Shown in pieces: positions 3,079-3,852 of a stretch of DNA of 54,394 nucleotides. The translations under genes and the position numbers were made by a program. The notes beneath the pieces are model-generated. The model was not told the origin of the DNA. It saw only the letters and a list, made by a program, of their open reading frames with translations, and ran no database searches. This DNA is from a virus (lineage: Duplodnaviria; Heunggongvirae; Uroviricota; Caudoviricetes). The DNA is taken from IMG/VR virus record IMGVR_UViG_2541047753_000004; one strand, given 5' to 3'. How positions within the stretch are numbered: position 1 is the first letter of the stretch; every line of letters starts with the position of its first letter.

Positions 3079-3852
3079 ATGGATATTACTGAGTTTCCTT
3101 CTGGAGTAATTGAACACCTTGGCTGGTATGTATACCGATTGATTGATCCGAGGGACGGAAGCACCTTCTATGTAGGGAAAGGCAAAGGTAACCGCGTATT
3201 TGCCCATATGCGCGGTGAAGTGGCAGCGACTGATGATGACGAGTTACTGAGCAACAAGCTAAAGCAAATTAGAGAAATAAGGTTAGCAGGACTTGAAGTT
3301 ATCCATGTCATCCATCGACACGGAATGACTGATGAAAAGACGGCGTACGAAGTTGAAGCTGCACTTATTGATGCCTACCCTGGGTTAACGAATATCATGA
3401 ATGGTGCTGGCAGCAATGAATTCGGCGCCGCGCATGTCAAAGAGTTGATAGCAACATATCAACCCGAAACCATAACATTTCATCATAAAGCATTAATGAT
3501 TTCCGTTAACAGAAGTGCAAAGGATTCAGAGCTTTATGATGCGGTTCGATTTAGCTGGCGCATTAATGTCTCTCGCGCCAGCCAAGCAGAAGTCATTCTT
3601 GCTACTGTAAGGGGAATCGTTCGAGGGGTTTTCATTGCTGATAAATGGCTCAAATCAACACGTGAAAATTTCCCTACGATGAAATACTGGGACGAGGATC
3701 CTGACTTTGAGGCAACACAAAGTTCTCGCTATGGTTTTGAAGGCCGAGAAGCCCCACCTGAAATAGCAAATCTTTATCTTGGAAAAAAAATACCAGATGA
3801 ATTAAGAAAAAAAGGAGCTATGTCCCCGGTCCGTTACTCACCTAATTTTTGA
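3079..3852 (+). CDS. GIY-YIG nuclease family protein with uncharacterised C-terminal domain
   Basis: [29 protein letters not shown] fits GIY...YIG...R; downstream [11 protein letters not shown] carries the usual catalytic Glu context; start chosen at in-frame ATG 3079. Confidence 0.6.

Follow-up and report, generated by a model that had tools for sequence, protein, structure and literature searches.

The open reading frame at 3079..3852 (+) of a 54,394-nt stretch of viral DNA (Caudoviricetes; IMG/VR record IMGVR_UViG_2541047753_000004; hereafter the window) almost certainly encodes an ortholog of PD-T4-3/CMoRE, a modification-dependent nuclease that cuts the DNA of T-even phages. The allele found here is tied to that activity by homology, and its identity, residues and genetic context were read directly from the window. 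The gene is an ordinary copy of a characterized single-gene bacterial defense enzyme that is already known, and as one more such copy it leaves little at stake; the residual novelty lies in the probable PUA-like ancestry of its sensor domain and in the reuse of that sensor with other effector domains.

PD-T4-3 was first found in 2022 in a functional selection, with E. coli ECOR68 as its source (PMC9519451), and its deletion from the clinical isolate NILS69 renders that strain sensitive to Tevenvirinae phages. Modification dependence was shown in 2025 with a Capnocytophaga homolog that degraded T4 DNA and spared unmodified T4-GT7 DNA, the GIY-YIG active site being required (PMC12366544). Liu et al. 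(2026) renamed PD-T4-3 as CMoRE and reported its mechanism and crystal structures (PMC12923530). According to that work, T2, T4 and T6 plate about five orders of magnitude less well on cells with CMoRE, and this defense is not abortive. CMoRE binds and cuts DNA containing 5-hydroxymethylcytosine (5hmC) or glucosylated 5hmC (5ghmC) but not DNA containing C or 5mC, and acts on modified DNA without strict sequence specificity (PMC12923530). Two modified sites are required for the cut, which is of the form CN11/N9G and produces 3′ overhangs of 2 nt, and the enzyme is a tetramer of two head-to-tail dimers; it was non-toxic in BL21(DE3), and defense from the native promoter of APEC O1 was weak (PMC12923530).

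By extension from this 98%-identical enzyme, the C-terminal domain of the protein encoded here would bind DNA carrying 5hmC or glucosyl-5hmC and ignore C and 5mC DNA. A head-to-tail dimer inside the tetramer would read two modified cytosines spaced by approximately 21 bp, with cleavage between them at CN11/N9G by the N-terminal GIY-YIG domains, and an acidic loop above the active site would repel ordinary DNA and thereby protect the host chromosome. As the expected outcome, incoming DNA of T-even-type phages would be destroyed directly and without abortive infection.

Identity of the gene

A reading made from the sequence alone (the sequence-only reading) had described a 257-aa ORF at 3079-3852, and this ORF was found as claimed, starting at ATG 3079 and ending with the TGA at 3850-3852. 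A longer reading of the same frame would begin with a TTG at 3028; we placed the start at ATG 3079, since the resulting MDITEF start is common to the RefSeq annotation and the crystallized protein. The gene is intact, and it is not a chance ORF, given that an identical protein is the representative of a cluster with 1045 member sequences. The family as a whole comprises more than 6500 clusters at 90% identity.

The coding sequence with its stop codon (3079..3852, +) was assigned by three kinds of search. The PADLOC profile PD-T4-3 (PDLC04031) matched the protein end to end (residues 1-256 against a 256-position profile, E 2.4e-140), PHROG 5356 (phrog_5356) matched it over its full length (E 2e-143), and a search of PDB sequences returned E. 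coli O157:H7 CMoRE (9U75, titled ‘PD-T4-3 / 5hmC specific restriction endonuclease’; E 3.7e-172), to which the protein is identical at 253 of 257 positions, along with the APEC O1 protein (9U7U, E 1.1e-150). The allele differs from the crystallized O157:H7 protein at four positions, T51A, E55D, Q169K and N197H. Its architecture is that of type I, i.e., a single protein with a GIY-YIG domain and the sensor and without an extra domain. An NCBIfam search of the protein returned neither a family nor an equivalog. In RefSeq it is named ‘LEM-3-like GIY-YIG domain-containing protein’, a name that hides a known type IV restriction function, so that the present assignment is a gain in annotation. No feature of the sequence contradicted the PD-T4-3/CMoRE identity, every listed sequence-level feature having been found. 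Of the functions earlier put forward for the gene, that of a modification-dependent nuclease proved correct in light of the 98% identity to the 5hmC/5ghmC-cutting O157:H7 enzyme.

GIY-YIG domain and functional residues

The segment of the coding sequence before the interdomain linker (3079..3381, +) contains the GIY-YIG core recognized in the sequence-only reading, as seen from a match to Pfam LEM-3_GIY-YIG (aa 28-110, E 2.1e-14) and from the motif residues; the generic Pfam GIY-YIG model scored below its cut-off on this protein. The motif reads G15-W-Y17-V-Y19 ... F30-Y31-V-G33 and, by sequence and alignment, corresponds to the ‘GIYxY-YIG’ motif (aa 15-33, GWYVY...FYVG; 3121..3177, +), whose residues Y17, Y19 and Y31 were required for activity by mutagenesis (PMC12923530). 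In an alignment of 28 homologs, extending down to 53% identity, Y17, Y19, Y31, R39, H43, E93, L96, N105 and Y127 were invariant, and R80 and V92 are also found in the protein encoded here. R39 and E93 were taken as the putative catalytic arginine and glutamate; these roles were set by conservation, the text of PMC12923530 giving no residue numbers for them.

All residues named by Liu et al. are kept in the present allele, namely Y17, Y19, Y31, V92, L96, Y127 and the acidic lid at 52-55. V92 and L96, both present in the sequence here, are tetramer interface residues needed for function (PMC12923530). The acidic autoinhibitory lid, D52-D53-D54-E55 (3232..3243, +), is located between helices alpha2 and alpha3 and reads DDDE, as compared to DDDD in the O157:H7 enzyme; replacement of the lid in a 4A mutant abolished selectivity and gave a toxic enzyme that cuts ordinary DNA (PMC12923530). 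The N-terminal segment is followed by a flexible interdomain linker (aa 102-116; 3382..3426, +) with pLDDT <50 at residues 102-116, and the linker was without density in both crystal forms (PMC12923530).

Full-length CMoRE homologs with 38-45% identity were also observed in virulent jumbo phages of Serratia, Pectobacterium, Pantoea, Klebsiella and Pseudomonas. In gp009 of Serratia phage Moabite (L009 3001-3765), the sole jumbo-phage homolog that was aligned, the GWYVY...FYVGKG motif is intact and the acidic lid is absent. The role of these homologs may be to keep out co-infecting phages whose cytosine is hypermodified.

C-terminal sensor domain

The modified-cytosine sensing domain occupies aa 117-257, including Y127 (3427..3849, +). 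The sequence-only reading had left this part as an unassigned domain of ~150 aa and had proposed an HMM search; the description was a fair one, as Pfam gave no match on aa 115-257 (143 residues) even at E 10, and a search of the family profile against PDB sequences found only CMoRE itself, with Eco29kI next at E 0.31 and over the core only. Neither search (Pfam up to E 10; PDB sequences) placed the C-domain by sequence profile among the PUA-like readers (EVE, YTH, ASCH, SRA). The alignment of 28 homologs showed invariant aromatic residues in the domain at Y153, W160, W190, F198, Y233 and Y253. In the published structures, 5hm-dCTP is bound by the C-terminal domain in contact with the main chain of Y127, and this ligand site lies at the domain edge without a pocket (PMC12923530).

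The fold of the C-domain was judged to be probably of the base-reader type. Its comparison with known domains gave scores of 5.5 for the EVE domain of VcaM4I, 5.4 for a Zymomonas ASCH domain, 5.3 for both YTHDC1 and the THYN1 EVE domain bound to 5mC DNA, 5.1 for both PH1033 and the YTH domain of Mmi1, and 4.8 for the N-domain of Staphylothermus McrB. When the C-domain alone was searched with phmmer against 1.84 billion representatives (E up to 0.001), 1011 clusters were retrieved, mostly with the usual architecture of ~250 aa. In other proteins the domain has different partners. It stands N-terminally in a McrB-type AAA_5 protein (P0258) and in 650-720-aa proteins without a Pfam match, and it follows HSDR_N-type PD-(D/E)xK domains in P0136 and P0130, an NgoFVII/DrmC-type PLD nuclease domain in P0198, a dual-specificity phosphatase domain in P0181 and ankyrin repeats in P0133. 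The AAA_5, HSDR_N, PLD, phosphatase and 650-720-aa proteins matched at E values of ~1e-16 to 1e-28. On the nine of these proteins that were scanned, the PADLOC PD-T4-3 profile matched with its second half alone (~119-134 to 255 in eight of the nine). The published DefenseFinder-based survey of CMoRE dealt with GIY-YIG-containing types only (PMC12923530). In a separate metagenomic family member, P0042 (369 aa), the C-terminal sensor domain is present as a tandem duplicate.

We consider the chances about evenly balanced that the C-domain is a highly divergent branch of the PUA-like readers (EVE/YTH/ASCH type) and an autonomous, widely shuffled module, and not an orphan fold. If this is true, there would be a larger, undescribed set of type IV systems sensing hypermodified cytosine and defined by the C-domain, and it would suggest that the physiological base site is a conserved aromatic pocket and not the edge site seen with free 5hm-dCTP. 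A sensor with a PUA-like fold, reused together with other effector domains, would bear on the evolution of modified-base readers and on the engineering of enzymes for 5hmC mapping.

Neighboring genes and independence from the R-M pair

The genetic context agreed with the layout given in the sequence-only reading, in which the gene is divergent from the methyltransferase gene and lies between an R-M pair and pin. The pair consists of an EcoRII-type restriction endonuclease (1..1209, +; Pfam EcoRII-N and EcoRII-C, PADLOC REase_II) and a Dcm/EcoRII-type C5-cytosine methyltransferase (1244..2719, -; Pfam DNA_methylase and DNA_meth_N, RefSeq start 2677). On the other side, a pin-type serine invertase annotated as pinE (3910..4500, -; Pfam Resolvase and HTH_7) is convergent with the CMoRE gene, with a spacer of 57 bp between the CMoRE stop codon and pin. 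This spacer together with the end of pin (3876-3915, -) also gave a partial, sub-threshold match to the Rfam family CssrB, a Shigella sRNA (model positions 141-180; 31.5 bits, with a gathering threshold of 76).

To count carriers, a 1.19-kb query covering the CMoRE gene was run against 5426 complete E. coli genomes, about 881 of which (16%) were found to have the gene. The contiguous 3.9-kb block of the EcoRII pair and CMoRE was present in only 244 of these carriers. Since approximately 70% of the carrier genomes do not have the pair alongside, CMoRE is independent of it; in those genomes homology to the window begins at 2870 or 2883/2886. The flanks of CMoRE vary among strains and include no obligatory partner gene. 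In O157:H7 Sakai the R-M pair is absent and the gene, ECs_0285, lies beside pinE and an AraC-type gene of the defective prophage Sp1; in E6474 the pair and CMoRE lie beside a lambda-type tail-fibre assembly gene (tfa), with no pin; and in AH02 the block is part of a circular phage record of 43.7 kb, flanked by int/dinI and by an acyltransferase gene. The block of the EcoRII pair and CMoRE was seen in at least three different prophage backgrounds. Plasmid EcoRII is ~80% identical to the R-M pair at the DNA level and is without a CMoRE gene.

Given that CMoRE is inactive on 5mC DNA (PMC12923530), the adjacent Dcm-type methyltransferase would be harmless. We infer that CMoRE complements EcoRII, being directed at hypermodified cytosine as against unmodified CCWGG, and that it tolerates the 5mC made by the adjacent methyltransferase. 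Such a pairing of cargo with a classical R-M system would allow one short cassette to cover both unmodified and hypermodified phage DNA.

Upstream region and attachment-site remnant

The homology edges define an upstream region that travels with the CMoRE gene (2870..3078, +) and that is presumed to be its native promoter region. A scan for sigma-70 consensus sites found no promoter between the methyltransferase gene and the CMoRE start codon; the sole site of the scan on the + strand (2653-2680) falls within the methyltransferase gene or at its start, not in the CMoRE module. Across 2600-4000, promoter and terminator consensus sites were no more frequent than in shuffled sequence.

The left edge of the CMoRE module falls at a tRNA-derived sequence, of which the window retains a degenerate att remnant (~2884-2905) within the upstream region. 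The better-preserved counterpart in O157 Sakai (L007 5957-6020) is a 62-nt tRNA 3′ fragment comprising the T-arm, acceptor stem and CCA, ~180 bp upstream of CMoRE; we take it to resemble tRNA-Ser(CGA), judging by the serU sequence. ARAGORN detected an intact tRNA neither in the window nor in six related loci. The att-like sequence gave no tRNA match in Rfam, where it matched a plastid 3′UTR family (+, E 1.2e-07) and, on the opposite strand, a tmRNA T-arm-like sequence (-, E 0.0011). At the tRNA-derived edge the prophage probably ends in an old att site, and a tRNA 3′ fragment at the module edge would make CMoRE the outermost cargo at that old attachment site.

The e14-like prophage and the mcrA slot

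From ~4.5 to 38.9 kb the window holds an apparently complete e14-like prophage, which runs from tail genes to head, lysis and regulation genes and ends with the integrase; it contains homologs of ymfL, ymfR, ymfQ, ycfK, tfaE and pinE. A K-12-type genome has the order icd′ - mcrA - pinE - tail fibre genes, and it aligns with the window at the nucleotide level from 3908, at the end of pin, inward. The analogy with the slot in which e14 carries mcrA, drawn in the sequence-only reading, was thereby upheld at the level of sequence, and CMoRE occupies that slot in the opposite orientation relative to pin. CMoRE is end-of-prophage cargo, and prophage ends swap type IV enzymes, with mcrA in K-12 e14 and CMoRE here.

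Several other features of this prophage were observed. It has a contractile tail module of the Mu/P2 type, an HK97-type head and lysis genes, with its integrase at 37723..38895, and the e14 element of K-12 is what deletion has left of a phage of this type. A near-identical copy in ETEC1717 has two annotated phage DNA methyltransferases. Near pin, 48-nt inverted repeats at 4526-4573 and 6390-6437 (81% complementary) are crossover sites that bound a segment of ~1.8 kb with alternative tail-fibre and tail-fibre-assembly ORFs, and this segment is expected to be a Pin-invertible host-range switch.

Alternative explanations

Two further functions raised in the sequence-only reading, a second restriction enzyme (considered here as one dependent on the methyltransferase) and a homing endonuclease, were not supported by this analysis. 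As a GIY-YIG type II enzyme (like Eco29kI, Cfr42I and Hpy188I), the protein would be a second R partner with self-protection by the divergent C5-methyltransferase. We give this almost no credence, since ~70% of carriers are without the R-M pair, their homology to the window breaking at 2870 or 2883, and since the match to Eco29kI in the profile search (E 0.31) comes from the core alone; moreover, the near-identical enzyme leaves both unmodified and 5mC DNA uncut and is non-toxic in BL21(DE3) (PMC12923530). It is equally improbable, to a degree close to exclusion, that the gene encodes a free-standing homing endonuclease of the I-TevI or Seg type that spreads itself among phage genomes. NUMOD, IENR1 and HTH modules of the homing type are absent (Pfam, aa 115-257 up to E 10), and the C-domain has a probable base-reader fold; the gene is at the prophage end next to the att remnant, neither in an intron nor inserted within or between conserved essential genes; and modified DNA is cut by the published enzyme without strict sequence specificity.

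The RefSeq name might in turn suggest a housekeeping repair or structure-specific nuclease of the UvrC, SLX1 or LEM-3 type, and this we regard as extremely improbable for an accessory gene that is found in 16% of E. coli genomes and always in a mobile-element context, that has no NCBIfam equivalog, and whose family has an experimentally shown defense phenotype. An abortive-infection toxin, which would kill the infected cell and not selectively destroy phage DNA, is very unlikely; in its favor, removal of the acidic loop yields a toxic enzyme that cuts ordinary DNA, but with the wild-type enzyme culture growth is normal at MOI >1 and infection leaves the host DNA reads unchanged (PMC12923530).

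Other elements of the window

Beyond the prophage the window contains further mobile DNA. Just past the prophage integrase there is a three-ORF islet (38887-40757, -), which encodes a protein with a match to the histidine-kinase-like ATPase family HATPase_c_2 (E 9e-5, below the Pfam cut-off) and a DUF4325 STAS-like protein; PADLOC gave no match on this islet. A P4-like satellite follows at 41126-52885, with its integrase at 41126..42319, its primase at 49894..52227 and homologs of psu, delta and sid at 45403-47298. The hotspot between int and psu of the satellite is occupied by a SIR2 + HerA defense pair (42327..45205; PADLOC HerA, E 1e-192). The window ends with chromosomal csiD (53417-54394; Pfam CsiD, E 2e-151), so the mobile elements adjoin the csiD locus in the source strain. 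In ETEC1717 a 98.5%-identical satellite is found at the opposite side of the prophage, 83 bp before the start of the EcoRII gene, which raised the idea that the window is a circular element; this was ruled out by the terminal csiD.

Comparison with known systems

The protein belongs to the same family as the PD-T4-3/CMoRE enzymes of ECOR68, O157:H7 and APEC O1 (PDB 9U75, 9U7U, 9U7Z and 9U8D), with 98% identity to that of O157:H7. ECs_0285 of O157 Sakai has the same pinE-adjacent prophage context, and the EcoRII-type R-M flank is found here and not in O157.

Among other modification-dependent enzymes, PvuRts1I/AbaSI share with CMoRE the specificity for 5hmC/5ghmC, the need for two cytosines on opposite strands, and the order of an N-terminal nuclease followed by a C-terminal reader. 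Their cut, CN11-13/N9-10G, falls about 11-13 / 9-10 nt 3′ of the modified base (PMC3241641). However, they combine a PD-(D/E)XK nuclease with an SRA-like reader, whereas CMoRE has a GIY-YIG nuclease and no sequence match to them; given the different nuclease fold and unrelated sequence, CMoRE is not a member of the PvuRts1I/AbaSI group. EVE-HNH (VcaM4I), SRA-HNH (TagI) and other modification-dependent enzymes with PUA-like readers likewise have a different nuclease type and no detectable sequence similarity to CMoRE.

EcoKMcrA of K-12 e14 is found in the same prophage-end slot beside pinE and, like CMoRE, is a single-protein type IV enzyme with a modified-cytosine target. McrA also targets non-glucosylated hmC DNA (the Rgl phenotype). 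Its nuclease is of the HNH type and is preceded by a reader of its own at the N-terminus, as opposed to the GIY-YIG nuclease of CMoRE, and its target is C5mCGG (PMC12707154). Unlike McrA, CMoRE does not respond to 5mC, and its substrates extend to glucosylated hmC DNA. At this prophage end CMoRE replaces McrA positionally, not evolutionarily.
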